Shown here: positions 1-27,375 of the stretch, piece by piece
Layout: each line of letters opens with the position of its first letter
Numbering within the stretch: the stretch's first letter is position 1
Assembly: GCA_041743525.1 (NCBI GenBank)
Contig: JBGTMN010000035.1
Coordinates: 1-55,372, forward strand
Direction of reading: 5' to 3'
Source of the DNA: Candidatus Saccharimonadales bacterium
Lineage (GTDB): Bacteria; Patescibacteriota; Saccharimonadia; Saccharimonadales; UBA4665
DNA: 55,372 nucleotides
Made by a program: the position numbers and the translations under genes
The notes under the pieces: model-generated
Seen by the model: the letters and a program-made list of their open reading frames with translations, nothing else
Databases searched by the model: none
Told to the model about the DNA's origin: nothing

Positions 1-2168
1 GAGGCAGCCGTGCCGTTCACGGAATAGTGTACGCTCAAATCAGTGAACGTGCCGGTGGCTAATCGGGCCGTGAATGACACGTTATAGTTGTTGTTGGCTG
101 TCAGGGGAGAGGTCAGAGTGTTTCTAATTCCATCATTGGCAGCGGTGGTAGTGGCGACTAGTGCGGAAGCTTGACCGGTTGCAATGTAGTTTCCAGCCGT
201 AAAGTAACGATTTACCGTGGCACCGCCAATAGAAGTCCATGAACCAGCAGGGAAGGTACTGTCGCCGCCGGTTCCGGGAGTCTCAGCGCCGCTGACTGAC
301 GCGTATTCGGTGACGTTGCTATTGATGGATATGAGTGATGCGGCAGAAGATGTCTGGACGTTAAACAATGTTCCGTTTACCGGATTCGTACTGCTATCGC
401 GAATGGTGAGCCCGTTGGTTGTAGAAGTACTACTGACAACGAGTTCGGCGCCACCGGCACTTTGCAGGGTATTGTCGTAAGCACTCTGTAGGGTTGTCGA
501 GCTAGATGCACCCGCAGCAGTCCAAGCGCTGCCATTCCACATCATGGTTGCCGACGTGTTCTGGCGCATAGCGATCAAGTTTCCGACGCCCCCTCCATTA
601 ACTGAAAGATTAAAATCCTGCGATCCATTGGCAGCGGTAATATAAATGACGCGCCCAGCCGTGGTAATAGAAGGAGTCGGCAAGATGGCGGTTCGTCCAT
701 TTTGATTGAAGCCGATGAGTATGGCGGCAGAATTGTTAACTGAAGACTGAGCAACGGTACAGCTAATAGAAACCAATGCGCCTCCCGTGTAACAGTTTGG
801 ATCGTTCGTGGTGGTCGAAAAAGTCGGCGTACTAATGATGACGAGGCCGTTCGAACCGGTACCGATACCGGTACCACCTGTCAGTAGCAAAGAACCGCCG
901 TTCGCGTTGCCACTCGTGGCATTACCTCCTTGAATGGTCAGTGAGCCTCCGGTAACTGCGGTAGCCGTGCTGTTCGTGCCGCTGAGCGTAAAGTTTGCTG
1001 GTGCTGCTGCCGATACACCGTTCCCCATATACAGACTATTCGTATTGTTGAAGGTAGCCCGGATTATGCCATTTGTGCTTACAGTGACGCTGTCTTTTGC
1101 CTGAACGGTAGTCGTTCCGGCTGTAGCTCCGCCGCCGGAGCCAATCGTGACATTAGTGGTTCCACCGGCGGTGTTATTCGTGCCGATTCCAATATTCTGG
1201 GTGCCGGATGAAAGGGTGGTATTTCCAATCTGAATACTACTCGCCCGAACCGTGCCTATGCCAATAGTACCGGCTAGACCCGTACCGTTGCCTGCACCAC
1301 CGTCGATGAGTACGCTGCCACCGTTACCGTCGGTTCCTCCAGAGCCTCCTTGCAGAAGTAATGTTCCGCCAGCCAGCCCGCTGCCGCCATTGCCGGAGCC
1401 AGCCGCAACCGTCAAGGAATCACCGGCAAACCCCGAAGCTGCTGTTGCAACTGACAAGCTGCGGCTGCCATTGGCTCCAAAAAGAATGTCGCCGGAATTG
1501 GTCAGCGTGAAAGCGTCAGCACCGCCCGTTTGAAGCTTTAATAGATCGCCTGTACCGGTCTTATTGATGAATATACTGCTTGTATTGCTTGATGCGTCAG
1601 TTTGAACTCCTTGAGCGAGCTGCAGGAACTGAGCGCTCGTAAGTCCCCCAAGCCGCCCGGAATTTAGTGAGTACGGCGTTGATGACATGCGTTTCATAGG
1701 TACCATTTCGCCATCGGGATTACAGCTTGCGAAAGGTGTACATGTCGGGTTGATGCCGGCTATGTTCATGCTGAGCCACAACGTTTCCTGGTTCCAGTCG
1801 ACACTGCTACCGAACGGATTTACCGAACCAAGCTGGACGGACAGAAAACCATTCTTAACCACGACTCCCTGGCTGTTGGAGTTCATGTAAGTCTCCGTCC
1901 ATCGCAGACTGCCGGCGGGCGAGCCGGTAGTATTGCCGGCAGTCTGACCGTCCCCGTCCTGGTAAATCTTAAACTGAATATTGTAGAGTCCGTCGGGAAC
2001 AGTCGCTCCTTGGGAAGTCAAAAGCCGGCCCTGAAAGTTGATCTGTTGGTTAATGCCAGCGGCGGCCTGAGCCGGAGAAGCTGACAGCAGAATACTCATC
2101 AGAACTGCGCTTACCAGAAAGGTAATCGCGCCCACTAATCGGCAATATTGTCGTACACCTGGTCCCAT
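1..2168 (-). CDS. Large secreted surface protein, N-terminal 722 codons only (C-terminus lies beyond the left window edge)
   Basis: Absent from the ORF track because it has no stop in the window. Hand translation of the minus strand from ATG (2168..2166) stays open down to position 3. It reads MGPGVRQYCRLVGAITFLVSAVLMSILLSASPAQAAAGINQQINFQGRLLTSQGATVPDGLYNIQFKIYQDGDG..., a signal peptide followed by G/T/S/N-rich repeats (GGSGGTDGNGGSVLIDGGAGNGTG...). No competing long ORF exists in these 2.1 kb. Confidence 0.8.
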   Translation of the reverse strand, partial: MGPGVRQYCRLVGAITFLVSAVLMSILLSASPAQAAAGINQQINFQGRLLTSQGATVPDGLYNIQFKIYQDGDGQTAGNTTGSPAGSLRWTETYMNSNSQGVVVKNGFLSVQLGSVNPFGSSVDWNQETLWLSMNIAGINPTCTPFASCNPDGEMVPMKRMSSTPYSLNSGRLGGLTSAQFLQLAQGVQTDASSNTSSIFINKTGTGDLLKLQTGGADAFTLTNSGDILFGANGSRSLSVATAASGFAGDSLTVAAGSGNGGSGLAGGTLLLQGGSGGTDGNGGSVLIDGGAGNGTGLAGTIGIGTVRASSIQIGNTTLSSGTQNIGIGTNNTAGGTTNVTIGSGGGATAGTTTVQAKDSVTVSTNGIIRATFNNTNSLYMGNGVSAAAPANFTLSGTNSTATAVTGGSLTIQGGNATSGNANGGSLLLTGGTGIGTGSNGLVIISTPTFSTTTNDPNCYTGGALVSISCTVAQSSVNNSAAILIGFNQNGRTAILPTPSITTAGRVIYITAANGSQDFNLSVNGGGVGNLIAMRQNTSATMMWNGSAWTAAGASSSTTLQSAYDNTLQSAGGAELVVSSTSTTNGLTIRDSSTNPVNGTLFNVQTSSAASLISINSNVTEYASVSGAETPGTGGDSTFPAGSWTSIGGATVNRYFTAGNYIATGQASALVATTTAANDGIRNTLTSPLTANNNYNVSFTARLATGTFTDLSVHYSVNGTAA

Positions 2169-2310
2169 GTTGTTTTTTGTTCCACTTTGTAATACGTTTT
2201 TGTTTTGCTTGGAAGTCTCTCAAGCTACATGTATCTACATCAAGCGTAACCGTTTTACTTATGAAATGCAAGTGTATTTAAAAGAAGTGCTAAAGTACTT
2301 GTGGATAACC

Positions 2311-3273
2311 CTAGGCAGTTCTTTGTGTCGGGTATTGCCGGCTTTCCAGAATGTGTTTTTCCCGGCGTTCGCCGAGCCAAAAACTGATGACGATAGCGAC
2401 GGCGCTGGTGTAGAGCGGCCAAAGCGCTAGAAGTTTATTCGTTGGTGGTGCAACGGTGCTGGAAATGCCCGTACCGGATGGTTGGCCGTTCACGATTGCA
2501 ACGACGCTTAAAAATGCGACGCGTCCGACAGCGTCGGTTGCCTGCATGGTAATGGGATAATTGCCTGGTTTTTTGTAAGTATGATTGGCTTTGAAGGGCG
2601 TGTTATTGTCTCTTGGAATAAGTTTGTTGTTATTATCGCCCCATTGGATATTTAGTGCGAACGGGGGCGTTCCCCCGAGTATGCTTATTGGAACACTGAG
2701 CTCTTTGCCGGGGAATATACCCCGGTACACACTGTCGGTACTCAGGAGTAATTGTGGGCCGCCAAAATTGAGTCCGGCTAACGGTGCACCTTGAGGCGGT
2801 GATGCATCATAAAATATATTGACTGGCGCCGAATCCGGACCGGGCTGATTCAATTCGTCGTATACTTTGGCGATAAGGGTGTTCGCTCCGTACATCAGGT
2901 CGATGTCGAACTTGAACGTACCGGAGTCGCTACAGGTGCCGGAACCGGCGAAGATGTCATTCTTATAAATCTCTACCAGCGTTTTGGCAGGGCAGGTACC
3001 TTCGACCGTGATGGGAGATTCCGTGAAACGCTGGCCGGAAGTTGGCGAGGTAATGGTAGCGGCGGTTTTCGGAGGTGGCCCGGGCATTCTGCCCGTGAGA
3101 CCGATAGATTCGGCCTGCGGAGGAGGACTGGCGGCCTGTACTGATGATATCATTAAAGCGACTCCGACCAGCACAAGAAGCACGGCTAATGGTCCGTACG
3201 ATGTAAATTCGTGGGGCCTGAGTTTGCCGCTGTGGCTGTGATGGATTATCTTGAAACGCTCAAGCATAAGCAT
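2311..3273 (-). CDS. Bitopic membrane protein with Ig-like and PKD-like domains
   Basis: N-terminal His-rich segment (HHSHSGKLRPHEFTSY) followed by a TM helix. PKD-type signature WGDNNN...HTYKKPGNYPITMQATDAVG. Second hydrophobic helix near the C-terminus (LLALWPLYTSAVAIVISFWL). Confidence 0.65.
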   Translation of the reverse strand: MLMLERFKIIHHSHSGKLRPHEFTSYGPLAVLLVLVGVALMISSVQAASPPPQAESIGLTGRMPGPPPKTAATITSPTSGQRFTESPITVEGTCPAKTLVEIYKNDIFAGSGTCSDSGTFKFDIDLMYGANTLIAKVYDELNQPGPDSAPVNIFYDASPPQGAPLAGLNFGGPQLLLSTDSVYRGIFPGKELSVPISILGGTPPFALNIQWGDNNNKLIPRDNNTPFKANHTYKKPGNYPITMQATDAVGRVAFLSVVAIVNGQPSGTGISSTVAPPTNKLLALWPLYTSAVAIVISFWLGERREKHILESRQYPTQRTA

Positions 3274-3344
3274 AGTATATCATCGTTGACCTGCATTCAC
3301 TTCTTCTGCTTCTTGAGTGCTACAAACAAGCTTGAAGAGTAAGA

Positions 3345-4361
3345 CTACTTGCGTTTGGACTTCGTGGCTTTGTTAATGACGCGCTGGTTGTGGTACTTGA
3401 AGAATGTCCGCGTTCCAAAGGCTCCGCCCACGAGGACGACGACCGCCGCTCCGATCAATCGGTATGGTACGACCCAGAAGGTGATAGTTTCGGTCATTTC
3501 CTTTTTGTCTGCGCCGTAAGTTAGTTTTAGGTCTGCGGTGTAGCGCCCGAACAGTTTTTTGGTACCGAGCACGCTGCTATCAAGCGGTTGATCGAATTTG
3601 CGGACACTTCCTGGCAAAATGTTGCGTGGAGGGAGGTTTACGTTGACTGCCGCAACTTTGTTTCCGAACATGTCGGTGATGACGACCTGGCCGGCGGGCT
3701 GATCGTGTATATTTCCGTCGTTTTTAATTCTTTGGGTAAAAGTGAGAGGGGTTGATTCGAATATAGTCCCAGTGCTACCATCTTTTTCTATTGTAAATGA
3801 TTCAATTCCCATGGACTCGTTTACGGGGCCATTGACGGTTATAAATACGAGAGCTCCGAGGCTCGCAGAAAGTGACACGCCGGTTCCTTCAAGTTCCGGA
3901 GGAGTGGCAGTGAACCTGACGACACCGTAATGTCCGCCAGGTGAGGCGTTAGCCGGTATTTTTATAGTGATAGGTAGGTTTTTAATTTCCTTTGGAACTA
4001 AGCGCATGGTTGCAAGCGGATTGACCCAGCCTTTAATAGAGTAGGGGTTGTCTCCATCATCTTCCATGAGTATTTTTGGCGTTCCGTCTTCTCCGGCTGC
4101 AATAAAGTCATTAATCTGAGCACTGACGATGAGTGGTGAGCTTGATATGTCACGAAGGCTAATCTGGGCCTTGATGGTTTGTCCGGGGTCGCCTTTAAGC
4201 GTTAGAACTGGTGGAGCGATTTCAAGAGCCTGGCCGCCGGTGTTGGTCGTAGGGGCAGGCGGCTTAGCTGTCGTTTGAGCTGTTGCAGGTTCGGCACTTG
4301 CGACGAAGGAGCAAAACACGATGCTGAAGCTGATAATTGCGAATTTATAACGGATATTCAT
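3345..4361 (-). CDS. DUF916/DUF3324-like (CscA-like) cell-surface protein with two beta-rich domains and a C-terminal TM anchor
   Basis: Signal peptide (FVASAEPATA). Motif ...IPANASPGGHYGVVRFTA... in the first half and ...NILPGSVRKF...FGRYTADLKLTYG in the second. C-terminal TM helix plus basic tail KATKSKRK. Size and topology match the WxL-operon partner proteins of Firmicutes (from memory, no HMM run). Confidence 0.5.
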   Translation of the reverse strand: MNIRYKFAIISFSIVFCSFVASAEPATAQTTAKPPAPTTNTGGQALEIAPPVLTLKGDPGQTIKAQISLRDISSSPLIVSAQINDFIAAGEDGTPKILMEDDGDNPYSIKGWVNPLATMRLVPKEIKNLPITIKIPANASPGGHYGVVRFTATPPELEGTGVSLSASLGALVFITVNGPVNESMGIESFTIEKDGSTGTIFESTPLTFTQRIKNDGNIHDQPAGQVVITDMFGNKVAAVNVNLPPRNILPGSVRKFDQPLDSSVLGTKKLFGRYTADLKLTYGADKKEMTETITFWVVPYRLIGAAVVVLVGGAFGTRTFFKYHNQRVINKATKSKRK

Positions 4362-4364
4362 GAG

Positions 4365-5477
4365 CTAGAACGTAGCGGTGCATACGTAGGTTAGTGTCGT
4401 GGTATAGGTACCTGCAATCTGGCTACCGGCGACGTTGACCATATAAGAGATGGTATATATCTGAGAGTTAGTCGGTCCGGGGGCGGCATCGGCGCTGTTT
4501 GCAATACTGTCACCTGATACAAATTTGAATTCTTCGGCGGTCGCGTAGTCGGCAGTTGGTTGACCGCGAAGATCGGTTTGGTTCGATAGGGGGGCGATCA
4601 AGCTACCAAAAGGATCGGTGGCTGTGGTGGTGTTTGCAACCAGGTTCATGCCGAATTGACCGGAACCTCGTGCGCCTGGCGCTTTTGCGGCCATGGCAGT
4701 GATCGTGTTGCTTCCTGAAGTGAGGGTTGGACCGGTGACTGTTATATTATAGCCATTTGTGGCATTAGTAGAGGCGGCCATTTGGGAGGTGGCGTATGCA
4801 GTGTCACTCGGAGAGAAAAGCTGGTTAAAATCTATAGCGCCACTGGTAGCCGTGGAACAGTCTGGTATGCCGGCATTCGCAGTTATAGTACCGCCGGTAC
4901 AGAATATGATAGATTCAGGCATTATTCCTGTCAGGATAATCTGTGTCGCGGTACTTGCGGCAACGGTACCGGTGTCCACTAGAGTTCCAGTTGTGTCTGT
5001 TGAAGCAAATGTTGATATACGGACAAAGAACATTTCGTTATCGGTAGTCGGGTTTGTGACGCTATCTAGTCTATAACTTAGCGCTGTGCTGCCAGTTATA
5101 GACGATGCGGTACGAGTTATATAGGGCGAACCATTTGTTGTATTGACCATCGTAAAGCCCGTTGCACCCGTCTCGTTGCCTAATGTAGCCGATGTTGTCG
5201 CTAATCCTGTGGGAAGAGTACAGGTTCCGCTGGCGGTCGTGCAATACAAGAATTGGATCGAACCGACAGCGTTTGTTGTAGGGACGGTAAAAGTCAGCAG
5301 GTGATTCACGACACCGCCGGGCTTAGAGCCACCGTCTGTAGCGCCCGATTGCAGGGTAAGGGTTCGGTCTACGATCTGAGCAGCAGATACCTGGTGAGCA
5401 GGGAATGCCGAGCTTAGAACAGCTGCGAGCATTACTACAGATACTAAAACGGGGACTTGCCTACCAATAACTCTCAT
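4365..5477 (-). CDS. Secreted two-domain surface protein, WxL/SCPU-like C-terminal domain (paralog A)
   Basis: Signal peptide ...AHQVSAAQ. Close paralog of 5560..6693. Ends ...QIAGTYTTTLTYVCTATF-stop. Confidence 0.75.
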   Translation of the reverse strand: MRVIGRQVPVLVSVVMLAAVLSSAFPAHQVSAAQIVDRTLTLQSGATDGGSKPGGVVNHLLTFTVPTTNAVGSIQFLYCTTASGTCTLPTGLATTSATLGNETGATGFTMVNTTNGSPYITRTASSITGSTALSYRLDSVTNPTTDNEMFFVRISTFASTDTTGTLVDTGTVAASTATQIILTGIMPESIIFCTGGTITANAGIPDCSTATSGAIDFNQLFSPSDTAYATSQMAASTNATNGYNITVTGPTLTSGSNTITAMAAKAPGARGSGQFGMNLVANTTTATDPFGSLIAPLSNQTDLRGQPTADYATAEEFKFVSGDSIANSADAAPGPTNSQIYTISYMVNVAGSQIAGTYTTTLTYVCTATF

Positions 5478-5559
5478 GTCTGAATCTTAGCATAAGCAAG
5501 AATTATCAGTCAAAAGATTTTTACTACATTTTTAAGCGGTCGAACAGTAATTCGGTGCT

Positions 5560-6693
5560 TTAGAAGGTTGGCGTACAGATGTAGGTCAGGGTGGTGGTGT
5601 AGGTACCAGCGGGCTGGCTACCAGGTACGTTCACGATGTATGATGCGGTAAAGATCTGGGCATCGGAGCCACCAGCTCCACCAAATGCACTGTCTGCGAC
5701 ACTGTCACCGGTGATGTATTTAAATTCGTCGACGGTACCGTAATCGGTGGTAGCTTGCGCGCGGTAATTCGTCCCGTTGGAAGCGAGGCTTACTTCGGCA
5801 CCGATTGCCGGAGTTGATGTAAGTACGGTATTTTCTTTGAGGTTCATGCCGAACTGGCTAACACCGCGGATTCCGAGGGCTCTTGCGGCCATAGGGCTAA
5901 TCGTGTTGGATCCTGAAGTCAGCGTAGGCCCGTTGACGGTTATGACATAGCCACTGCCGGCATTGGTTGATGCAGCCATCTGTGATGATGCAGTCGCAGT
6001 GTCGGTAGGGGAGAAGAGCTGATTGAAGCTGATGACACCACTTGTCGCAGTTGCACAGTCAGGGACGCCGGCTGTCAGGCCGATAGTTGCACCTGCACAG
6101 AAGACGAGTGATTCGGGCATGGTGCCATCAAGGATAATCTGAGTAGCGGTGCTTGAAGTGACGGTTCCTGAGTCTACGATAGAACCCGATGTGTCAGTAG
6201 ATAAGTATGTTGTGATACGAACATGGAAAGTCTGGTTGGTAGTAGTTGGATTTACGATATTATCAAGGCGATAAGAAAGTACCGTATTTGTGTTAACATT
6301 GGCGGCCGTACGAGTCAGGTAGGGCATTCCGTTTGTCGCGTTTACTATGTTGAAACCGCTCGCACCAGATTCGGCTCCTAGGGCAGCAGAAGTCGTATTC
6401 AGTCCTGTCGGTGTATCGCAGTCCAAGCCGTTCGCGACGGCAGCCGCGGTCGTACAGTATTGGAATCGTATAGATCCGACATCGCTGCCGCCAGGCACTG
6501 TGAAGTTGAACACGTGGTTCACGGTGCCGCCGGGCATCGATCCGCCGTCGCCACCGGCTCCGGCCTGCAAGGTTAAGCTTCGCGTTGTTATTTGAGCCGC
6601 TGATGCGGTATCGGGCGGCAAGACTTGCAGCACTATGCTTGCGATCAGTGTCGCTACGGCGAATAGTCCAAAGAATGTATTTTTTTGTTTCAT
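5560..6693 (-). CDS. Secreted two-domain surface protein, WxL/SCPU-like C-terminal domain (paralog B)
   Basis: Signal peptide ...DTASAAQ. Collinear with paralog A (e.g. STATQIILDGTMPESLVFCAG..., QFGMNLKENT). Ends ...PAGTYTTTLTYICTPTF-stop. Confidence 0.75.
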   Translation of the reverse strand: MKQKNTFFGLFAVATLIASIVLQVLPPDTASAAQITTRSLTLQAGAGGDGGSMPGGTVNHVFNFTVPGGSDVGSIRFQYCTTAAAVANGLDCDTPTGLNTTSAALGAESGASGFNIVNATNGMPYLTRTAANVNTNTVLSYRLDNIVNPTTTNQTFHVRITTYLSTDTSGSIVDSGTVTSSTATQIILDGTMPESLVFCAGATIGLTAGVPDCATATSGVISFNQLFSPTDTATASSQMAASTNAGSGYVITVNGPTLTSGSNTISPMAARALGIRGVSQFGMNLKENTVLTSTPAIGAEVSLASNGTNYRAQATTDYGTVDEFKYITGDSVADSAFGGAGGSDAQIFTASYIVNVPGSQPAGTYTTTLTYICTPTF

Positions 6694-6819
6694 GATCTTT
6701 TGTTTTTAAGTTGTAAAGTTTTTTGTTTTTAGTTGTTTCATATGGAGCTTAACACAAGCGTTATAGCCTGGTCAATACATTTTACGATGCAACAATTACA
6801 ACATATCGGTTTTGGACAT

Positions 6820-7551
6820 CTAATAAGTACCGGTACAGATTACAGTCTGGTCTGCGGTATAGATTCCGCCAGGGGTGAGTCCGGTGACATTGACGATATA
6901 ACTGATGGTATAGGTAGTTACACCCGAACTGCCCGGTGCGGTTGCGATTGTTTCGCCATTTACGTATCGGTACTGATTTGATGTCGAATAATTCGAAGCG
7001 GCCGAGCCGATACCGAATATGCTGCGCTCGGGATTGGAGCCAAAAGATTCCGGCGATGTGTTCGCCACTAGATTTATGCCGAACTGTTCTATGCCGGTTT
7101 GAGAGTAGTCGGTAGTGCCCATAGCGGCGATCTTGTGCTGACCGTTTGTTGGCGGGTCACCGACTATCTGTACTGCGTAACCATAGCTGGTGTAATTTGA
7201 TACGGAAAAAGTGGACGTTGCCGTAGCGGCCGTCATCGGTGAAAATGTTCCGAAGTTGGCCTGTGAACCGTCGATGGTTATAGAAAGGGTAGGATCGGCA
7301 GTGGTTTGCGAGCCGCCGTCAGTCTGGAAATTTTCGGACGCCGAGTTACCGACTGCCGTGTCGCCAACAGACAAGCTCCCTCGATAGTTCGCGGAATTCG
7401 AGTTTATCAGACCGCCTGCGCCCAAAACGCTTTCATCAAATTTGAAATTTTGCGATTCGAGGGTCTGGGCGCTCGCTATGCCAATAAAAGTTGAGGCGCC
7501 GAATACCGCCACAAAACACCAGGCGACCCATTTTACCATCCACTTCGACAT
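6820..7551 (-). CDS. Secreted single-domain paralog of the WxL/SCPU-like family (first gene of the operon)
   Basis: Signal peptide ...GIASAQT. Shares QFGINLVANT, YTISYIVNVTG and the terminus GGIYTADQTVICTGTY-stop with the C-terminal halves of the two larger paralogs. Confidence 0.7.
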   Translation of the reverse strand: MSKWMVKWVAWCFVAVFGASTFIGIASAQTLESQNFKFDESVLGAGGLINSNSANYRGSLSVGDTAVGNSASENFQTDGGSQTTADPTLSITIDGSQANFGTFSPMTAATATSTFSVSNYTSYGYAVQIVGDPPTNGQHKIAAMGTTDYSQTGIEQFGINLVANTSPESFGSNPERSIFGIGSAASNYSTSNQYRYVNGETIATAPGSSGVTTYTISYIVNVTGLTPGGIYTADQTVICTGTY

Positions 7552-7834: not shown

Positions 7835-8875
7835 ATGGCGGACACACCACCGCAAGAATCAAACGGGCAATCATCTGGAACACCAGCTGCTGAAGAACTG
7901 AAGCCTAAATCTGCCGACGCATCGCCAGGTCAGGAGGCTGCAATCGCTGGCGCAAAACCGGGCAAAAATCCGCTCCGTACGACGTATCGACCGAGCCATA
8001 AAGCGACATTCGTCGGTTTGGCCGTGATAGTGGCTATTCTGGCGGTGAATGTCGCTGTCATCACATTTGTTATAAAAAAACAATCTGGCGGTTTGTCTCA
8101 GGCTAATCAGGCGGAAGTCGTGCTGACGCCAGGAGTTTTGGATAGACTTGGCGTAAACCGCGGTACGGTCGGAGATAGCGGTGTGGAGCTGGTCGTAGCT
8201 CCGAATTCGCGCTTTAGCGGAAAAGTTCAGGTTGGCGGGGACGTCAGTATTGGCGGGGAGCTCAAGTTGAACAGCAAATTCACGGCCACAGACGCCAGCT
8301 TAGCGCAGCTCGAGGCTGGAAAAACATCTTTGGCAGATTTGAACGTAAACGGAGATGCGACCGTATCGGCATTGAACCTGCGCAACAATCTGGCAGTGGC
8401 CGGACAGACGCGGCTTCAGGGGCCTGTTACTATCAATCAATTACTAACGGTCGCCAATAATGCGAATATTGCCGGAAACTTAGCGGTTGGCGGTGTTCTA
8501 TCGACCAGAGGTTTTCAGGCGACGAACCTCGTCGTAGACTCTACGTTAACTATCGGCGGGCATTTTATAACCCGTGGTTCGCCGCCGACTGCAACGCCTG
8601 GACCAGGACTTGGGAATAACGGTACTATGTCGATTAGCGGAACCGATGCCGCCGGAACTATCTCAATCAATACTGGAACCGGAGCACAGGGAGGAATTCT
8701 GGCGAACGTAACTTTTCGTAATCAGTACGGGTCGTCACCCCGAGTGGTCGCAACTGTCATAGGAGGTGGCACCGGCAGTGTGTTCGTGAACCGTAATACC
8801 CGCGGCTTTAGTGTGGGCATAAACGGTCCGATTGCTCCTGGCGGCTATGCGATCGATTACATCGTGATGCAATAA
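7835..8875 (+). CDS. Membrane-anchored beta-helix repeat protein (hypothetical)
   Basis: Charged, Pro-rich N-terminus and one TM helix (FVGLAVIVAILAVNVAVITFVI). Then degenerate repeats such as GDVSIGGELKLNS / NLAVAGQTRLQGPVTI / ANIAGNLAVGGVLS. Confidence 0.6.
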   Translation: MADTPPQESNGQSSGTPAAEELKPKSADASPGQEAAIAGAKPGKNPLRTTYRPSHKATFVGLAVIVAILAVNVAVITFVIKKQSGGLSQANQAEVVLTPGVLDRLGVNRGTVGDSGVELVVAPNSRFSGKVQVGGDVSIGGELKLNSKFTATDASLAQLEAGKTSLADLNVNGDATVSALNLRNNLAVAGQTRLQGPVTINQLLTVANNANIAGNLAVGGVLSTRGFQATNLVVDSTLTIGGHFITRGSPPTATPGPGLGNNGTMSISGTDAAGTISINTGTGAQGGILANVTFRNQYGSSPRVVATVIGGGTGSVFVNRNTRGFSVGINGPIAPGGYAIDYIVMQ

Positions 8876-8914: not shown

Positions 8915-11524
<2,610 letters not shown>

Positions 11525-11528
<4 letters not shown>

Positions 11529-13024
11529 TTTTTGGCCTCTACCTTTTCGGTTTCGTTTTCGGATTCTGCAGGCTTGTCTTCGGGTTTTTCGCTCGGCTTG
11601 TCCGACAATGGCGTGGCGGCGTGTTTTTTGAGCAGTTCGGCTTCTATCCGATCGTAATCTTTCTCTTCTTTGGCTTCCGGGCTGACTTTGCGTACGGAGT
11701 CTTTTAGTCCGACGATATCCATTTCCATCTCGCCGCCGCTCAGCATAATCGTTTCCAGTAATAACTGCTGCTCGGTGAGCGAATGGCGTTCTTCGGGAGG
11801 TTGCTGCAATGCTTCGTATATGTATTTACCGATCGTCAGATCGATGGTTGTTTCTTTGGAAAGCTGTGAGCTAAAGTGCGAAAATTCTTCGGCCTGTTTG
11901 TATTTTGCCAGGGTTTTGAAGAGCGTAGACGACAATCTTTTTTGCCTGTTCGTCTGAGCCTGACCACCAACACGCGACACCGAAAGTCCGGCATTGACCG
12001 CCGGCCGTTTGCCTTGACGGAAAATCCCCAGGTCAAAGATTATCTGGCCGTCAGTAATAGACATGATGCTGGTAGAAAGGTATGCCGTAATGTCATCGTT
12101 TGGGGTTAGTACGACTGGCAGGCACGTGAGTGTTTTGCCGTTAGTTTTGAGTTTGCCGGCGCGCTCTAACAGGCTGGAATGGGCATAAAAAATGTCCCCC
12201 GGGTAGGAGTCGCGTCCAGGGTCGACCTCCTGTAGCAAAGATAGCTGTCGGTAGGCTTCGGCATGACTGGAAAGGTCATCGTACATAATCACGACGTCTT
12301 CGCCGGCGTACCACAAAAACTCGGCCATGGCGCAGGCGGCGTAGGGCGCCAGATAGGATTGAGTCAGGGAATCGAATATATCGGCCAGCACGACGATGGT
12401 ATGATCCATGGCGCCAGACTCTTTTAATTCGCTCAGGAGATGTTCGATATCGACTTTCCGCTTTCCGATAAGCACGTATACGACGATGCGGTCAGAGCCT
12501 TCCTGATTGGCACTGAGCTGACTTAAAAACGTACTTTTTCCAGATTTGCTGTCTCCGAGAATGGCAATACGTTGTCCAAGCACAATCGGAAAGAAACTGT
12601 CGACGGCTGTGACGCCGCTGGCCAGCTGTTCGTTTAACATGCTGCGGGCCATGATGCCGGGGGCCGCGTTAAATATACCGGAACTCTCGGCTGTTTTTAT
12701 CGCGCCCTTGCCGTCGAGTGGCTTGCCCATTGGCGACAGGACACGGCCGATCAGTTCTTTACCGACGGGAACGTTCAGCTCGTCGTGTTCTACGACGGCC
12801 AGCGTGCCGGGAGCCATTTTTTCGGAATCTATGTTGAACAACACGACGCGGTCTCCGTAAGCTTCACGCACGAAACCGCGCTGTCCGTCTTCGAACAAAA
12901 CCTGCGCGCCAAGACGCACGCCTTCCAGGCCTTTTACTTCTATAAGAAAGCTGTTGGCTGCGACGACTTCGCCGGTCAGATTATCGGCTTCTACTAGTCG
13001 TTGAAAAGTCTGATCATCAAACAC
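11525..13024 (-). CDS. atpA: F-type ATPase alpha subunit with charged C-terminal tail
   Basis: P-loop GDSKSGKST, SITDGQIIF and RPAVNAGLSVSRVGG (canonical alpha motifs). Start placed at GTG 13024, which overlaps the atpH stop (GTGTTTGA). The track start at 13120 would overlap atpH by about 100 nt. Confidence 0.85.
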
Positions 13025-13493
13025 GACGCAGTACCTCCGGGAAATTGTCTTTGCCGGCGAGGATCTGCCGCCGAAACGACCAATCGTGTATGCGGCTACC
13101 GTGGCGCACGACCATACCACCGAGCAGCGTGGAGTTAAATTGGAATGAAACTAACACGTCGGGAGCTATGTTGGCGCGGCACCAGGCGACGAGTGATTTT
13201 TTAAGTCCCGTACCCGCTGGGGCCGCTAATGTGATCGTCACCTGGTGGGCCGAGTCGGCATAATCCTGTAGTGTCGTTATGAGAGCCTGTACGTTTTCTG
13301 GAGTTATCTCTTTAAAACTTTGAACGACTTCGCTAGCAGAGTCAGATAGTACTGGTGGATTTATGGCGCCTTTTTGGGTGACCTGTTTTTTGACGGCATC
13401 ATGAGATAGCCATTGTTGGAGGCCTTTTAGCTCAAGGAGTACCGATTGCAGGTCCTGTGCCGAGCTTAAGCTGTCCGGGAGTTTAAGCTTCAT
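13017..13493 (-). CDS. atpH: F-type ATPase delta (OSCP) subunit
   Basis: 158 aa, located between b and alpha. C-terminal ...STLLGGMVVRHGSRIHDWSFRRQL resembles the delta consensus. Confidence 0.7.
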   Translation of the reverse strand: MKLKLPDSLSSAQDLQSVLLELKGLQQWLSHDAVKKQVTQKGAINPPVLSDSASEVVQSFKEITPENVQALITTLQDYADSAHQVTITLAAPAGTGLKKSLVAWCRANIAPDVLVSFQFNSTLLGGMVVRHGSRIHDWSFRRQILAGKDNFPEVLRRV

Positions 13494-20766: not shown

Positions 20767-22820
20767 TCCGAGGAATAGGATTATCGGTCACAGCAGTAGT
20801 GCTCAGTCTATGCGTATCCGTTAGCACTTCTGCTATGTCCAACGTCGGTCCTGATCCTAATGACACGGGCTTAGCGCCCGGCGAAGTCATTGGCTACAAT
20901 ATATCTACGACTAATTATAGTAGTAATCCAAGTCCAGCCAGCACAGTCCCTATCTATTTCGATAACAATAGCGGAACCAAGCAGATTACTATTGTGGGCG
21001 GAGATTTATGTACTGATGCATTGCAATCTGCGCCCATTTCCGGCGGTAATTATAGAGACATCCAAAACGTTGCGAATATCGAGGGCAGTTCGGCTGCAAT
21101 GTTTTATTTGACAAATCCTTCAACCAGCGTTAATACGACTCCGGTTCAGTCAAGAGTAAGCAGTTCTGATACGTGCTACCGAGATACGATGACCTTGTCG
21201 TTTAATGCATCTAGTACCTTGCTATTTGATCCTGTCATTAATAAATACTATGCATATTTCACAGGAGAAGTCCTGGGCATAAGTTATGCCGAGAATCTGT
21301 ACAGCATAAGAGTAGAAGAAGTCACTGCTATCGTTGGTTACTCGGTAGCTAGCTCAGCAAGAAGTTTCGGAGTTGAAATGCAGTATCCATATTCAGGATA
21401 TAGAAACTACCGGTTTCCATTCGCTCCTGATTGTAGCGTGACGAATCCAAGCGGAACACCGGCGGTCGCGGAATTATTTGATCTGGACAACGGGGACCCG
21501 AGTGTTCAGAACGGTAACTTTATCAGGACATATGTTGAACAGACGGACACGAGCGGTAATGTATCCCGTATTCCTCTGCAGTTCACTTCTACGTCAAGTC
21601 CGACGAGCTCGAACGTTCCGGCAACTGGCGATAAAGATAGCGGATATGTCATCGATTCCGGTAACGGAACAAGTGCCTTTATCCAAATGACCGTATTCCC
21701 GAGTTATAAGTATCGATTGGGTATGGACGGAGTCTATTTCAGAAATTTCCTGCAGTTCAATTTGCCGTACGACAGCATATACCATGCCGTGACATGCCCC
21801 TCTCTACCACTTCCGCCACCACTCCCACCACCACCCCCTCCCGTAGACAAACCCTACCTCAGCGTCGTAGGCGGTGACGTCGTCACCGGCGCTAGTTTTT
21901 CAAATGACACTACCCCCTGTAGCGCGGCACCACATAATACGCTGGCCGGTGTCGTTGGCTGGAATAGCAATGCGAGTCCTTGGACGGGAAGTGGCGGTAC
22001 GTATGCCGTGTTGGCTTGGGGGCGAATCCAGGAGTTCGCCACGAACCAAGGAAATGCTACGAATGGAGGGTCGGCGACTTCACTGTCATTCTCGAACATC
22101 AACGACGGCGGCAGTGTGAATGCGGGTAACGGCATGTTCGGCGGCATGTTCGAATCGGCGCCGTGTATAGATTACTGGGGTTCTCGCCCGGCAACATCGA
22201 CTGGTACGGTTATTCCGGCCGGCACTTCAACAATTAGCCTGAACGGCATGAACGGCAATTACTTCGCAACGGGGCCGCTCACCATCAATACAAGTGCCAT
22301 AACTAACGGATCTACAGTAACTCTGTACGTCACTGGCAATGTAGCCATAACAGGCAACATAACTTATGCGGGTGCTGGCGCATGGAATAGTGTGAGCCAG
22401 ATACCATCACTCAAGATCGTATCCCTCGGTTCCATATTCATAGACGCTAACGTTGCCCAACTTGACGGTTTTTACGTGGCAGTCCCAACAGGGAATTACG
22501 CGACCGGTTCGACAGCTACCAGGACATATGCTAATCCCGGTACCGGAACGATCTCGACCTGTAGTAATGGCTTCAATGTCGTAGATCCATCGCAGTTGCC
22601 AGGAAGCGATATGATTAACCGGTGCAGGTTTATCCTGACGATAAACGGATCTTTCGCTGCCAACCAGGTTTGGCTATTACGAACCCACGGTTCATACACC
22701 GACGGAACTATAGGTACAGAGAAGTTCAAATACGGTCCTGAAGTATGGCTAGCTCCACCAAGCGGCGGCGCACTAGATCCCAATTACCGGTCTATTATTG
22801 GGCTTCCGCCGATACTTTAA
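20721..22820 (+). CDS. Large secreted protein with poly-proline linker and beta-helix C-terminal half (pilus-locus adhesin candidate)
   Basis: AGGAG lies 4 nt upstream of the ATG. Signal peptide ...SVSTSAMS. Linker LPLPPPLPPPPPPVDKP. Then SVVGGDVVTG... and ITGNITYAG repeats. Immediately upstream of pilM. Confidence 0.7.
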   Translation: MFRYQTAGHSIYRRLVRGIGLSVTAVVLSLCVSVSTSAMSNVGPDPNDTGLAPGEVIGYNISTTNYSSNPSPASTVPIYFDNNSGTKQITIVGGDLCTDALQSAPISGGNYRDIQNVANIEGSSAAMFYLTNPSTSVNTTPVQSRVSSSDTCYRDTMTLSFNASSTLLFDPVINKYYAYFTGEVLGISYAENLYSIRVEEVTAIVGYSVASSARSFGVEMQYPYSGYRNYRFPFAPDCSVTNPSGTPAVAELFDLDNGDPSVQNGNFIRTYVEQTDTSGNVSRIPLQFTSTSSPTSSNVPATGDKDSGYVIDSGNGTSAFIQMTVFPSYKYRLGMDGVYFRNFLQFNLPYDSIYHAVTCPSLPLPPPLPPPPPPVDKPYLSVVGGDVVTGASFSNDTTPCSAAPHNTLAGVVGWNSNASPWTGSGGTYAVLAWGRIQEFATNQGNATNGGSATSLSFSNINDGGSVNAGNGMFGGMFESAPCIDYWGSRPATSTGTVIPAGTSTISLNGMNGNYFATGPLTINTSAITNGSTVTLYVTGNVAITGNITYAGAGAWNSVSQIPSLKIVSLGSIFIDANVAQLDGFYVAVPTGNYATGSTATRTYANPGTGTISTCSNGFNVVDPSQLPGSDMINRCRFILTINGSFAANQVWLLRTHGSYTDGTIGTEKFKYGPEVWLAPPSGGALDPNYRSIIGLPPIL

Positions 22821-22888
22821 AGATCCTTTGGATAGAAGTAAAAAAGTTTGTACAAAAAAATAAATGCTTATGCTATACTTGGAGTAAT

Positions 22889-23929
22889 ATGAGTTTACTG
22901 AGTGGGGTATCACAATTTTTCGGCTTAGACATCGGCACAACCGCTGTCCGGTTAGTAGAGCTGCATGGCAGCGGGCCACAGAAGTCACTTGCTAAATATG
23001 CATTCGTACCAATAGATAGTAAGATTGCGCTCAGCGATTCTAAGCCCGACCAGGCGAAGCTCGCTGAAGCAATCAAAGATTTAGTTGACCAGTCCAGAAT
23101 ACTGACTCGCAATGTCGCGGTCGGTGTACCTTCGCTGAGGGTTTTTACGACTGTCGCAGATATAGACAAAGTACCGCACGGGGAACTGGACAGAACCATA
23201 CGTTACCAGGCAGATTCTTTGATTCCGACTCCCGTAGAAGAGTCCAAGATCGACTGGGCGTTACTCGGAGATTCCCCGAAAGAAGCCGGTAAGATCGAAG
23301 TTTTGCTGAGTAGTGTTCCAAATGCTTTTATAGAACAGCGGCTCGATATGCTGGAAAGCATCGGACTCAATGTTATAGCGTTTGAGCCGGAAAATCTGGC
23401 ACTTGCACGCTCCCTGGTAGATCCACAAGCAACGACTCCTCAGGTTGTTATAGACATAGGTCGTAAGGGTACGGACATTATTATCGTTATGAATGGCGCT
23501 CCGCGATTGATGCGGTCAATACCGACCGGCATGGAAGGGATCATCAAGTCTGCCGCACAAAATCTAAATGTAGACGAAAGCCAAGCCGAGCAATTTGTGC
23601 TTAAATTCGGACTCAGTAAGGACAAACTCGAAGGTCAAGTATACCAGGCGGTGGTAGGGACTGTAGATATACTTACCAATGAAATCGATAAATCCATAAA
23701 GTTCTTCCAAGGTAGATACACCGATACAAAATTAGATCGTATTATCGTCACCGGTGGCGCATCGGTGCTTCCCGAATATCCGTTGCACCTTGCAAACAAA
23801 TTCGGCATGAACGTCGAAATTGGTAACGCCTGGCATAATGTAGCATTTTCGGCGAGTCGCCAGAATGAACTTGCGGCATTGTCTAATCAGTTTGGCGTTG
23901 CAGTCGGACTGGCGGAGAGAGAAGAATGA
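22889..23929 (+). CDS. pilM: Type IV pilus assembly protein PilM
   Basis: GGAG lies 4 nt upstream of ATG 22889. MSLLSGVSQFFGLDIGTTAVRLVEL is a typical PilM/actin-like N-terminus. The track start at 22745 would overlap the upstream gene. Confidence 0.85.
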   Translation: MSLLSGVSQFFGLDIGTTAVRLVELHGSGPQKSLAKYAFVPIDSKIALSDSKPDQAKLAEAIKDLVDQSRILTRNVAVGVPSLRVFTTVADIDKVPHGELDRTIRYQADSLIPTPVEESKIDWALLGDSPKEAGKIEVLLSSVPNAFIEQRLDMLESIGLNVIAFEPENLALARSLVDPQATTPQVVIDIGRKGTDIIIVMNGAPRLMRSIPTGMEGIIKSAAQNLNVDESQAEQFVLKFGLSKDKLEGQVYQAVVGTVDILTNEIDKSIKFFQGRYTDTKLDRIIVTGGASVLPEYPLHLANKFGMNVEIGNAWHNVAFSASRQNELAALSNQFGVAVGLAEREE

Positions 23930-25560: not shown

Positions 25561-27375
25561 ATGAATGTATTATCGGCAGCAGCCCAAAAACAGGTTGAAG
25601 ACGATCTCGTTTCTTCTGGCGTATTAAAAGCCGACATATTAAAAACGCTCCGTGAAAAATCGGAAAAAGAAAAAACACCGTTACTCGGTCTGCTCGTGCA
25701 CGAGGGAAACGTCAGTAATGAGCAGCTGACGAAAGTTGTAGCCCATGCAAATAAAGTTCCATACGTAAATCTTAGTTCCGCGAAAGTAGACGAAAAAGTC
25801 CTGAAGCTTTTGCCACAGGATATAGCGGAACGCTACATGGCGGTGCCACTCGGTGAAATGCAACACCGGCTGGTTATTGCGATGCTCGACGCCGATAACG
25901 TCCAAGCCGTTGACTTCCTCAGCAATAAGATTGCCCGTCCGCTCAAAGTATATGCGGCGAGCGAAGAGGGTATACGCCAGGTTTTAAAGCAATATCAGTC
26001 TGACGGATCTTCTGATGTCGCAAGCGCAATTACGGCACTTGGCGGTGACCTTTCGAGCGCGAACATGGGGCTGAGCGACATAGCTCAGGGCCGTGAAAAA
26101 GAAGCTATCAATAAAAACGTCAAGACGCTTGTTCAGGATTCTCCGATCAGCAAGGCGCTGTCTACGATTTTGGAATTCGCAGCAAAAAACCACGCCAGTG
26201 ACGTTCATATCGAACCGATGCAGGAATTTTTAAAGATCCGTTGTCGAATAGACGGCGTATTGCGGGAAATAATGAAACTTCCCAAAAGTACCGAACCGGC
26301 TTTGATATCCCGTATCAAAATTCTGTCCAACCTGAAAATCGACGAACACCGTGTACCGCAGGATGGTGAATTTAGCATCATAGTAGCCAATAAGGATATC
26401 GACCTTCGAATCGCCATTTCCCCCGTCGTATGGGGCGAGCAGGTGGTTATTCGGCTACTGGACAAGTCAGGCACCAGCCTCCGATTGGAAGACATGGGAT
26501 ATGCGGGCAGATCGCTCCGCACTATCAAAGAAGGATTAAAACAGACAAATGGTATGATCCTGACCAGTGGTCCGACCGGTTCTGGTAAGTCGACTTCCTT
26601 GTACGCTCTACTTCAGGAAGTAAAAGACGATGGTGTAAACATCGTAACTTTGGAAGATCCGGTGGAATACAAAATGGCCGGAGTCAATCAGATTCAGGTC
26701 AATGCCGATGTCGGGCTGACGTTCGCGACCGGACTTCGCAGTATTCTCCGTCAGGACCCCGACATTATCATGGTCGGAGAAATTCGTGACAAAGAAACCG
26801 CCGAGCTGGCGGTGCAGGCGGCATTGACCGGTCACCTCGTGTTCTCGACGCTTCACACCAACTCGGCGGCTGGAATTCTTCCCCGTTTGCTGGACATGGG
26901 GATTGAGCCGTTCTTGATAGCCAGTACGGTACATACGGTCATCGGGCAAAGGCTGGTTCGCCGTAATGCCGTCGATGCCGAATCGTACGAATCCGGCGCA
27001 GTAGAGACTGAAGCTATTAGAAAGACCTTAGGTCATTTTCTGCCTGAATCCGAGGCGCTGCGCGCAAAAGCCGCCGAAGATTTTGGATACGAAACCTTGC
27101 CACTGAAGGGTGATAGTGCTTATACTTTAAGTAAGGGCATAGACAGTCCAAGCGCACCAGGTGGCTATAAAGGCAGGATGGGAATCTACGAGGTTTTCAG
27201 TGTTGATGAAAAGATACAGGATCTGATTCTGAAACGTTCCACAAGTGCCGAAATTCAAAAAGAGGCGCAGAAGCAAGGAATGGTAACGATGCGCGAAGAC
27301 GGATATTTAAAAGCTCTCGCCGGAAAAACAACCCTTACCGAAATTAACCGGGTAGCGGCCACGGACATCGCATAA
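25561..27375 (+). CDS. pilB: Type IV pilus assembly ATPase PilB (GspE family)
   Basis: GspE N-terminal domain, Walker A GPTGSGKST, LRQDPDIIMVGEIRD, GHLVFSTLHTNSA. Confidence 0.9.
   Translation: MNVLSAAAQKQVEDDLVSSGVLKADILKTLREKSEKEKTPLLGLLVHEGNVSNEQLTKVVAHANKVPYVNLSSAKVDEKVLKLLPQDIAERYMAVPLGEMQHRLVIAMLDADNVQAVDFLSNKIARPLKVYAASEEGIRQVLKQYQSDGSSDVASAITALGGDLSSANMGLSDIAQGREKEAINKNVKTLVQDSPISKALSTILEFAAKNHASDVHIEPMQEFLKIRCRIDGVLREIMKLPKSTEPALISRIKILSNLKIDEHRVPQDGEFSIIVANKDIDLRIAISPVVWGEQVVIRLLDKSGTSLRLEDMGYAGRSLRTIKEGLKQTNGMILTSGPTGSGKSTSLYALLQEVKDDGVNIVTLEDPVEYKMAGVNQIQVNADVGLTFATGLRSILRQDPDIIMVGEIRDKETAELAVQAALTGHLVFSTLHTNSAAGILPRLLDMGIEPFLIASTVHTVIGQRLVRRNAVDAESYESGAVETEAIRKTLGHFLPESEALRAKAAEDFGYETLPLKGDSAYTLSKGIDSPSAPGGYKGRMGIYEVFSVDEKIQDLILKRSTSAEIQKEAQKQGMVTMREDGYLKALAGKTTLTEINRVAATDIA

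Follow-up and report, generated by a model that had tools for sequence, protein, structure and literature searches.

What do the six co-directional genes at one end of contig JBGTMN010000035.1, from a Candidatus Saccharimonadales bacterium (assembly GCA_041743525.1), build on the surface of the cell, and is it a structure already known from other bacteria? The contig was analysed over its full length of 55,372 nucleotides, hereafter the window. An initial annotation, made from the sequence alone, had offered two options for this locus. The first was a divergent surface complex of the Csc/WxL type. The second was a fibre-assembly module of a monoderm cell, with an anchored PapD-like chaperone and strand-complemented subunits. 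Our analysis indicates with high confidence that the locus is a compact Pam pilus operon, with a single chaperone and two pilins, of a Saccharimonadales bacterium belonging to the Candidate Phyla Radiation (CPR, Patescibacteria). The second option corresponds to this system, which is known from cryo-electron microscopy (cryo-EM) in a relative and to which curated profiles assign four of the six proteins. The first option also captured part of the picture, so that the two are views of one thing and not alternatives.

Identity and conservation of the operon

The Pam system is already described in a 2026 preprint (Troman et al., bioRxiv 10.64898/2026.03.03.709456) and in NCBIfam release 20. The window thus holds a typical compact operon and not a new system, and the view of the initial annotation that such a module had yet to be described for a CPR/Saccharibacteria-type cell no longer holds. 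Two results appear to be new with respect to the preprint, namely the distribution of a donor motif among the subunits and the homology of the chaperone to the WxLIP proteins of Firmicutes. In Ca. Mycosynbacter amalyticus, thin filaments resolved by cryo-EM (2.8 and 3.6 A) are built of PamA and PamB, which were shown to assemble by donor strands and are among the most abundant proteins of that organism. Each pilin consists of a nine-strand beta-sandwich N-terminal domain (NTD), a linker strand and an open, truncated immunoglobulin (Ig)-like C-terminal domain (CTD) that accepts the linker of its neighbour. The genes of the operon are PamT, PamA, PamE, PamD, PamR, PamB and PamC, with PamC and PamD being PapD/FimC-like chaperones anchored by a transmembrane (TM) segment. 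In an AlphaFold-based model, single-domain PamT is located at the tip and PamR acts as the terminator, the latter being an RbmA-like, TM-anchored protein whose N-terminal strand is predicted to end assembly. A tail-fibre-like protein is central in the Pam neighbourhood network (Troman et al., bioRxiv 10.64898/2026.03.03.709456).

Families in the window were named with NCBIfam release 20 at its curated cut-offs. The 243-aa protein was recognized as the PamT equivalog NF058579 (265.5 bits, cut-off 240, residues 14-243) and the 320-aa protein as the PamR equivalog NF058578 (332.6 bits, cut-off 300), while the 377-aa and 370-aa proteins matched Pam_pilin_C, NF058581, with 142.6 and 139.2 bits, respectively, against a cut-off of 55. 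The operon had been called all-hypothetical, which is true of the public annotations of its homologs but not of current family libraries, in which four of the proteins have names. The features of the locus, with the evidence for each, are as follows (ORF, open reading frame; AF2, AlphaFold2).

7551-6820, minus strand: PamT gene, 243 aa (ORF call and NCBIfam NF058579)
6693-5560, minus strand: Pam shaft pilin 1, 377 aa (NCBIfam NF058581)
5477-4365, minus strand: Pam shaft pilin 2, 370 aa (NCBIfam NF058581)
4361-3345, minus strand: membrane-anchored Pam chaperone in the PamC/PamD position, 338 aa (AF2, Foldseek, PF06030 and hhalign)
3273-2311, minus strand: PamR, 320 aa (NCBIfam NF058578)
2168 to beyond 1, minus strand: giant secreted protein of at least 722 aa that runs off the window edge (conserved adjacency)
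7835-8875, plus strand: divergent 346-aa single-pass membrane protein, a conserved neighbour between PamT and atpC

The six co-directional minus-strand genes of the initial annotation were reproduced with exact coordinates, and the gaps along the run measure 126, 82, 3, 71 and 142 nt. All six products carry an N-terminal hydrophobic, signal-like segment, and the 338-aa and 320-aa proteins also a C-terminal TM segment. Scans of the operon for promoters and terminators performed no better than shuffled sequences, and no further paralogs of the pilins or PamT were found in the 55-kb window. Since syntenic orthologs of all six, at 45-73% identity, occur in other Saccharimonadia and four of the products match curated NCBIfam models, the six ORFs are real genes and not chance frames.

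Conservation of the six-gene order across related genomes had been named at the outset as a check on the locus. Scanning one genome per species yielded 16 Saccharimonadia loci, and the order atpD-atpC, divergent 346-aa gene, PamT, pilin, pilin, chaperone, PamR and giant gene was kept in all 13 with enough flanking sequence. Protein identity across the conserved loci was 40-86%. Two loci have an extra gene after PamT and before the pilins (L001:4632-6595 and L003:4557-6277); locus L001 carries three pilin genes, and the first pilin is longer (423-451 aa) in several loci. It follows that the pilin complement of the compact operon varies between species. In the window, the ATP synthase genes for the epsilon, beta, gamma and alpha subunits lie at 8915-13120, a neighbourhood that is also found in the Pam operons of the preprint. 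The families are large: at 90% identity the chaperone family comprises 1,658 clusters and the pilin family 2,654, all of them recorded publicly as hypothetical, and at 50% identity with E up to 1e-3 the chaperone family comprises 8,658 clusters. The best identities of the window proteins to their homologs were 63-74%, and therefore the collections searched hold no close relative of this Saccharimonadales species.

Subunit classes and the donor motif

The first three genes had been described as encoding paralogs of one another. This holds over the full length for the 377-aa and 370-aa pilins (59% identity, E 1e-140), whereas in the 243-aa protein the similarity to them is confined to the C-terminal ~150 aa (35-37% identity, E 1e-18 to 1e-20). 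This shorter protein is predicted to be the single-domain tip subunit PamT and not a full paralog of the pilins. Pilin 1 consists of a signal peptide, a beta-sandwich NTD at about residues 33-181, the linker IILDGTMP at 186-193 and an acceptor CTD at 217-377. Pilin 2 has the same architecture, with the donor linker IILTGIMP at residues 180-187. PamT is composed of a signal peptide and one acceptor (Pam_pilin_C) domain, without a donor linker.

The distribution of the donor strand was followed with the motif [ILVMF]-x-[ILVMF]-x-G-x-[MLIV]-P. It occurs exactly once, at the NTD-CTD linker, in each of 31 pilins (the two of the window and 29 orthologs), and in none of 14 PamT sequences (the window copy and 13 orthologs), where the linker segment is gapped in the alignment. 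In PamR it follows the signal peptide at a distance of about 10 residues; the strict form is present in the window copy and in 11 of 15 orthologs, and near-variants bring the count to 15/15. As for the background, the motif was matched five times in 72,503 residues of other ORFs and was present in 2-4% of shuffled sequences. This pattern yields three classes of subunit, with PamT as acceptor only, the pilins as both donor and acceptor, and PamR as donor only, with an anchor. The three classes fit the needs of a donor-strand fibre with tip, shaft and base, and thus lend independent, cross-species sequence support to an assembly order that otherwise rests on AlphaFold models.

PamR itself has a signal-like N-terminal segment, the donor strand IGLTGRMP at residues 57-64, Ig/fibronectin type III-like domains and a C-terminal TM segment at 281-299. 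In Pfam it matches the Ig domain Big_7 and, marginally, PKD (23.6 vs 23.5 bits). It had been presented in the initial annotation as a bitopic PKD anchor protein; the membrane topology agrees with its TM and signal-like segments, while the PKD match barely exceeds the cut-off and the key feature is the N-terminal donor strand. PamR is predicted to be the base terminator and membrane anchor of the fibre.

In the AF2 model of the 377-aa pilin, the NTD reached a predicted local distance difference test score (pLDDT) of ~90, while the CTD, modelled as a monomer, stayed below 50, in line with an acceptor fold that is not complete by itself. Searches of the Protein Data Bank (PDB) with the pilin and chaperone sequences gave no match at E up to 1, in a set that evidently lacks the Pam cryo-EM chains. 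With Foldseek the pilin model, in which the CTD is not modelled, gave only weak generic Ig matches, its NTD resembling EbpB, SdrE and BslA at E of at least 1e-3. These resemblances, together with the type IV pilus genes elsewhere in the window, are what could be cited for another known filament, namely a sortase-linked Gram-positive pilus, a type IV pilus or a TasA/Ena-like fibre. We consider this highly improbable, given that the structural matches are weak and generic, the LPXTG sorting signal is absent from all six proteins, the N-termini are ordinary Sec signal-like segments and not type IV prepilin leaders, and there were no TasA, Ena or SCPU matches. Sortase pili, type IV pili and membership of the SCPU/Csu group were rejected on the basis of the Pfam matches and the missing LPXTG signal. 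Roughly 15 kb separate the Pam operon from these type IV pilus genes, which comprise pilM (22745-23929) and the gene of a PilB-type ATPase (25561-27375), both on the plus strand; this genome thus encodes both filament systems. Both have been reported for other Saccharibacteria.

Regarding the cysteines of the pilins, each window pilin has five, and in the 377-aa protein there are two apparent pairs, 80/92 and 199/213. The unpaired, conserved cysteine sits in a C-terminal ...LTY[IV]CT motif, at a position that in WxL domains is occupied by the leucine of the distal W-x-L. An intermolecular disulfide through this cysteine was considered and dropped, as the PamR donor strand has no cysteine and the matching residue is kept in only 8/13 PamT orthologs.

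The membrane-anchored chaperone and the WxL proteins

The AF2 model of the 338-aa chaperone (pLDDT 82.7) consists of two beta-sandwich domains at residues 52-176 and 184-297, a C-terminal helix at 300-337 and a basic tail, in agreement with the signal peptide, two beta-rich halves, C-terminal TM helix and basic tail originally read from the sequence. The loop at 88-118 is modelled less confidently but is highly conserved. When the model was compared with the PDB by Foldseek, the top matches were the WxLIP of E. faecium, both unbound (9i1y) and in complex with a long WxL protein (9i25_C), at E 1e-9, followed by RbmA and then by the chaperones of chaperone-usher systems. Among the latter, YadV, CfaA, Caf1M, CupB2, EcpB, DraB, CsuC and PapD matched at E 6.6e-8 to 3e-6. 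Owing to a different hinge angle and to the extra helix in the model, global TM-scores to these chaperones are low (0.22-0.27 by query length).

At the sequence level, the window chaperone scores 14.6 bits against PF06030 (WxLIP_PGBD, formerly DUF916), below the cut-off of 27.3. The same family is matched by 25 of 50 close relatives and, among diverse members of the chaperone family, by 100 of 114 (best E 4e-11). A narrow chaperone profile (A1, ~58% identity) reached no WxLIP in the PDB, and a diverse one (A3) recovers the EfmWxLIP1 chains across the whole first domain. For profile-profile comparison by hhalign, ten annotated WxL clusters were collected from Bacillus, Listeria, Enterococcus, Lactococcus, Melissococcus and Vagococcus plasmids. 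The chaperone and WxLIP profiles aligned at 98.9% over the full length (E 1.2e-17, 294 columns), at 97.8% without signal peptide and TM segment (E 9.8e-13, 212 columns) and at 98.3% for the first domain alone (E 2e-14, 110 columns). The second domain alone gave 7.4% against DUF3324 (E 0.0048, 26 columns), and is collinear with WxLIP in the full-length alignment of 212-294 columns. Reversed, cross-family and cross-domain controls did not exceed 11% with full-length profiles or 1.5% with trimmed ones, and column-shuffled WxLIP profiles scored 13.9 ± 2.4 vs the observed 89.5. Plain searches with hidden Markov models (HMMs) were reciprocal, each of the two models ranking all members of the other family first.

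These profile and model comparisons establish the 338-aa chaperone as a distant but clear homolog of the Firmicute WxLIP (DUF916/DUF3324). Similarity of this protein to DUF916/DUF3324 and to PapD-like folds had been put forward as a check on the initial annotation, and both were found, the former by hhalign for DUF916 and the latter by Foldseek, with DUF3324 taken alone reaching only the 7.4% given above. The preprint makes no mention of WxL, DUF916 or Enterococcus (10.64898/2026.03.03.709456), and in the literature searched no paper linked WxL with donor-strand systems. As a side observation, some members of the chaperone family (P0309, P0313 and P0330) reach 637-802 aa; their chaperone-like region lies in the C-terminal half, with two or three matched stretches, and they may be fused or duplicated forms.

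In the Csc clusters, CscA is a WxLIP composed of DUF916, DUF3324 and a TM segment, CscB and CscC are WxL proteins and CscD is a small LPXTG protein; a disordered hairpin loop of DUF916 has been predicted to become a strand that completes the WxL sandwich (PMC10599100). WxLIP has also been crystallised bound to a WxL protein (PDB 9i25). In our hhalign alignment the chaperone loop 88-118 falls between the same core strands of DUF916, and this loop may be the donated element.

The homology raises the alternative of a static WxL/Csc-type surface complex and not a fibre, in which the WxLIP-like 338-aa protein would be a permanent anchor that completes and displays WxL-like proteins. Such a complex would agree with the WxLIP kinship, with the bound structure 9i25 and the strand insertion predicted in the 2023 paper, with the parallel make-up of the clusters (in each, a short protein that is acceptor only, long proteins of several domains, an anchored partner with two Ig domains and a further small, anchored protein) and with the sub-threshold resemblance of the C-terminal hairpin of the pilin CTD to the distal WxL motif. 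It is, nevertheless, an unlikely explanation. A donor linker in every pilin and none in PamT fits polymerisation and not 1:1 display, the orthologous PamA and PamB form filaments by cryo-EM in M. amalyticus and are very abundant there, and W-x-L motifs, LPXTG signals and Pfam WxL matches are all absent from the window operon. A Pam pilus remains the better account of the locus.

A related question is whether the pilins themselves are WxL proteins without tryptophan, as the term WxL-like in the initial annotation implied. Tryptophan is absent from both pilins, and in PamT it is confined to the signal peptide. The W-x-L motif is absent from the 243-, 377- and 370-aa proteins, Pfam searches of the six window proteins and 19 CTDs gave no match to WxL (PF13731), SCPU, PapD_N/PapD_C or fimbrial families at E up to 1, and the Pam CTD profile retrieved no WxL chain from the PDB. 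With hhalign the CTD and WxL profiles align over the last 15-16 columns only (1.9-5.5% probability, P 0.007-0.025), the aligned segments being AGTYTTTLTYIC in Pam and AGTFTADLTWNL in WxL; global hhalign produced no alignment, but the observed score was reached by only 1/150 column shuffles. In rank tests, the WxL HMM placed Pam pilins in 10 of the top 12 positions among 589 ORFs of CPR loci (three for the reversed HMM), and the Pam CTD HMM placed WxL proteins in 5 of the top 6 among 168 ORFs of Firmicute loci (two for the reversed HMM), although individual E-values of 0.13-1 are not significant, orthologs are not independent and composition explains part of the ranking. In all of these alignments, the final ~50 positions of WxL correspond to the final ~45 residues of the pilins.

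The first option of the initial annotation thus fared unevenly: its anchored 338-aa partner is a WxLIP homolog, whereas for the supposedly WxL-like paralogs there is no Pfam WxL match and hhalign gives 2-5%. For the acceptor domains, homology between Pam and WxL is suggestive, and we would put it at somewhat below an even chance. With similar reserve, the Pam pili of CPR and the WxL/Csc clusters of Bacillota might be two branches of an ancient monoderm strand-complementation system, acceptor domains included, in which case the Y-x-C end of the Pam domain could correspond to the distal W-x-L motif. If true, this would recast WxLIP as a membrane-anchored PapD-like chaperone. It would predict one of two things: that strand exchange can pass on or polymerise WxL proteins, or that Pam pili evolved when a static display complex acquired an internal donor linker.

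Proposed assembly, adjoining proteins and comparison with known systems

A possible course of assembly can be put together from these elements. All Pam subunits would be exported by Sec. The 338-aa chaperone, held in the membrane by its C-terminal helix, would lend a strand to unassembled subunits until exchange, doing PapD-type work without an usher or an outer membrane. The pilins would then polymerise head to tail, with the linker strand of one filling the open CTD groove of its neighbour by donor-strand exchange. PamT, having an acceptor domain only, would cap the distal tip, and PamR, with only a donor strand and a C-terminal membrane helix, would fill the last groove, stop growth and tie the fibre to the membrane. 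In this scheme we infer the transient role of the chaperone, the tip and base assignments and a function in host attachment.

Several points weigh against the identification or against parts of this scheme. No NCBIfam model matched the 338-aa chaperone, and WxLIP has been described as a stable surface partner and not a transient chaperone (PMC10599100). No filament has been seen for this organism, and the roles proposed for chaperone and terminator rest on the AlphaFold models of the preprint and on motif logic, not on experiment. The low pLDDT of the CTD in the 377-aa pilin could also be explained by a shallow alignment. Finally, the window does not reproduce the M. amalyticus operon gene for gene, as it has one chaperone only, no ~55-kDa PamA and no PamB/PamC module within 55 kb.

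The extent of the pilus module depends on the giant and the 346-aa proteins. The giant protein is rich in G, T, S and N, with CBM_4_9-like C-terminal repeats (a weak CBM_4_9 match), and has no TM or LPXTG anchor and no match to a Pam family. It adjoins PamR in all 14 loci that extend past PamR, its orthologs being 1144-2038 aa long, and is probably the tail fibre-like neighbour of the preprint. PHROGs offered nothing useful for it or for the other components. Across 14 orthologs (e.g. L009:11083-14640) the mature N-terminus of the giant protein hardly changes (GINQQINFQGRLL...VPDGxYNIxFKIYQDGDG), while the remainder varies. Within this N-terminus, the strand INFQGRLL bears a loose likeness to the Pam donor pattern Φ-x-Φ-x-G-x-Φ but has no M-P; judged by this likeness, the INFQGRL strand might dock into an acceptor groove. 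In the 346-aa protein, a single TM segment (62-80) is accompanied by a repetitive ectodomain rich in G, T and V, and Pfam gives a weak bactofilin-like match; its gene is kept at the same position, divergent from PamT, in 13/13 loci with flank.

The link of the giant protein to the pilus is so far one of conserved adjacency, and it is nearly an even question whether the pilus module comprises just five genes, with the giant and 346-aa proteins being independent surface proteins that are merely syntenic. Such independence would accord with the lack of a Pam family match in either protein, with the 142-nt gap before the giant gene and with the absence of an acceptor domain or strict donor motif from its product. 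Adjacency kept in 13-14 loci at 40-67% identity, the central place of a tail-fibre-like protein in the neighbourhood network of the preprint and the invariant, loosely donor-like INFQGRLL strand argue for an association with the pilus.

Two side observations concern the ATP synthase genes. The beta subunit (9178-10671, minus strand) has a C-terminal tail of ~55 residues with a high content of P, E and K, an uncommon feature for an AtpD protein, and the gamma subunit (10668-11528) is very divergent, with 75 bits vs a cut-off of 194.

Compared with the Pam operon of M. amalyticus, which also belongs to the Saccharimonadia lineage, the window shares the PamT, PamR and Pam_pilin_C families above curated cut-offs, pilins with a predicted two-domain layout and a conserved linker, a TM-anchored two-Ig chaperone, and the adjoining ATP synthase and large tail-fibre-like protein. 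By gene position it matches the T-A-E-D-R part of that operon, the order being taken from the accession numbers in the preprint. It differs in having one chaperone instead of two, and two similar ~38-kDa pilins with no PamA of ~55 kDa carrying an NTD insertion of ~100 aa; a separate PamB/PamC module is likewise missing. Pam pili have been proposed as the way in which ultrasmall parasitic CPR bacteria first reach their hosts, and the family is very large.

With the chaperone-usher pili (Pap/Fim, CFA/I, Csu), the system has in common donor-strand complementation and exchange, a two-Ig-domain chaperone, as indicated by Foldseek, and a predicted acceptor-only tip subunit with a dedicated terminator. 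However, Pam has neither an usher, for which no match was found in the six or flanking genes, nor an outer membrane, and its chaperone is membrane-anchored. Moreover, the donor strand in Pam is an internal linker between domains and not an N-terminal extension, and the filaments are extended and not coiled (10.64898/2026.03.03.709456).

As regards the WxL/Csc clusters, Pam proteins have no W-x-L motifs or Pfam WxL match, and there is no LPXTG protein or sortase, PamR being anchored by a TM helix instead of a CscD-type signal. The subunits of Pam have a donor linker of their own and polymerise, in contrast to the WxL proteins, which have been described as peptidoglycan-bound monomers; the second domain of the chaperone is not significant against DUF3324 (PF11797) alone, and the window chaperone lies under the PF06030 cut-off. 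On the other hand, chaperone and WxLIP have the same layout at similar lengths (338 vs 339-394 aa), running from a signal peptide through a DUF916-like Ig domain and a second Ig domain to a TM helix and a basic tail. The binding proposed for both is the same, a strand from a loop of the DUF916 domain completing the beta-sandwich of the partner, and so is the logic of the cluster, with a short acceptor-only protein, long multi-domain proteins that end in an acceptor and a small anchored protein. The homology of chaperone and WxLIP links a pilus specific to CPR with a surface system of enterococci, listeriae and lactobacilli that is widespread and poorly understood, and gives both fields a testable hypothesis, that of strand donation by a membrane-anchored chaperone.

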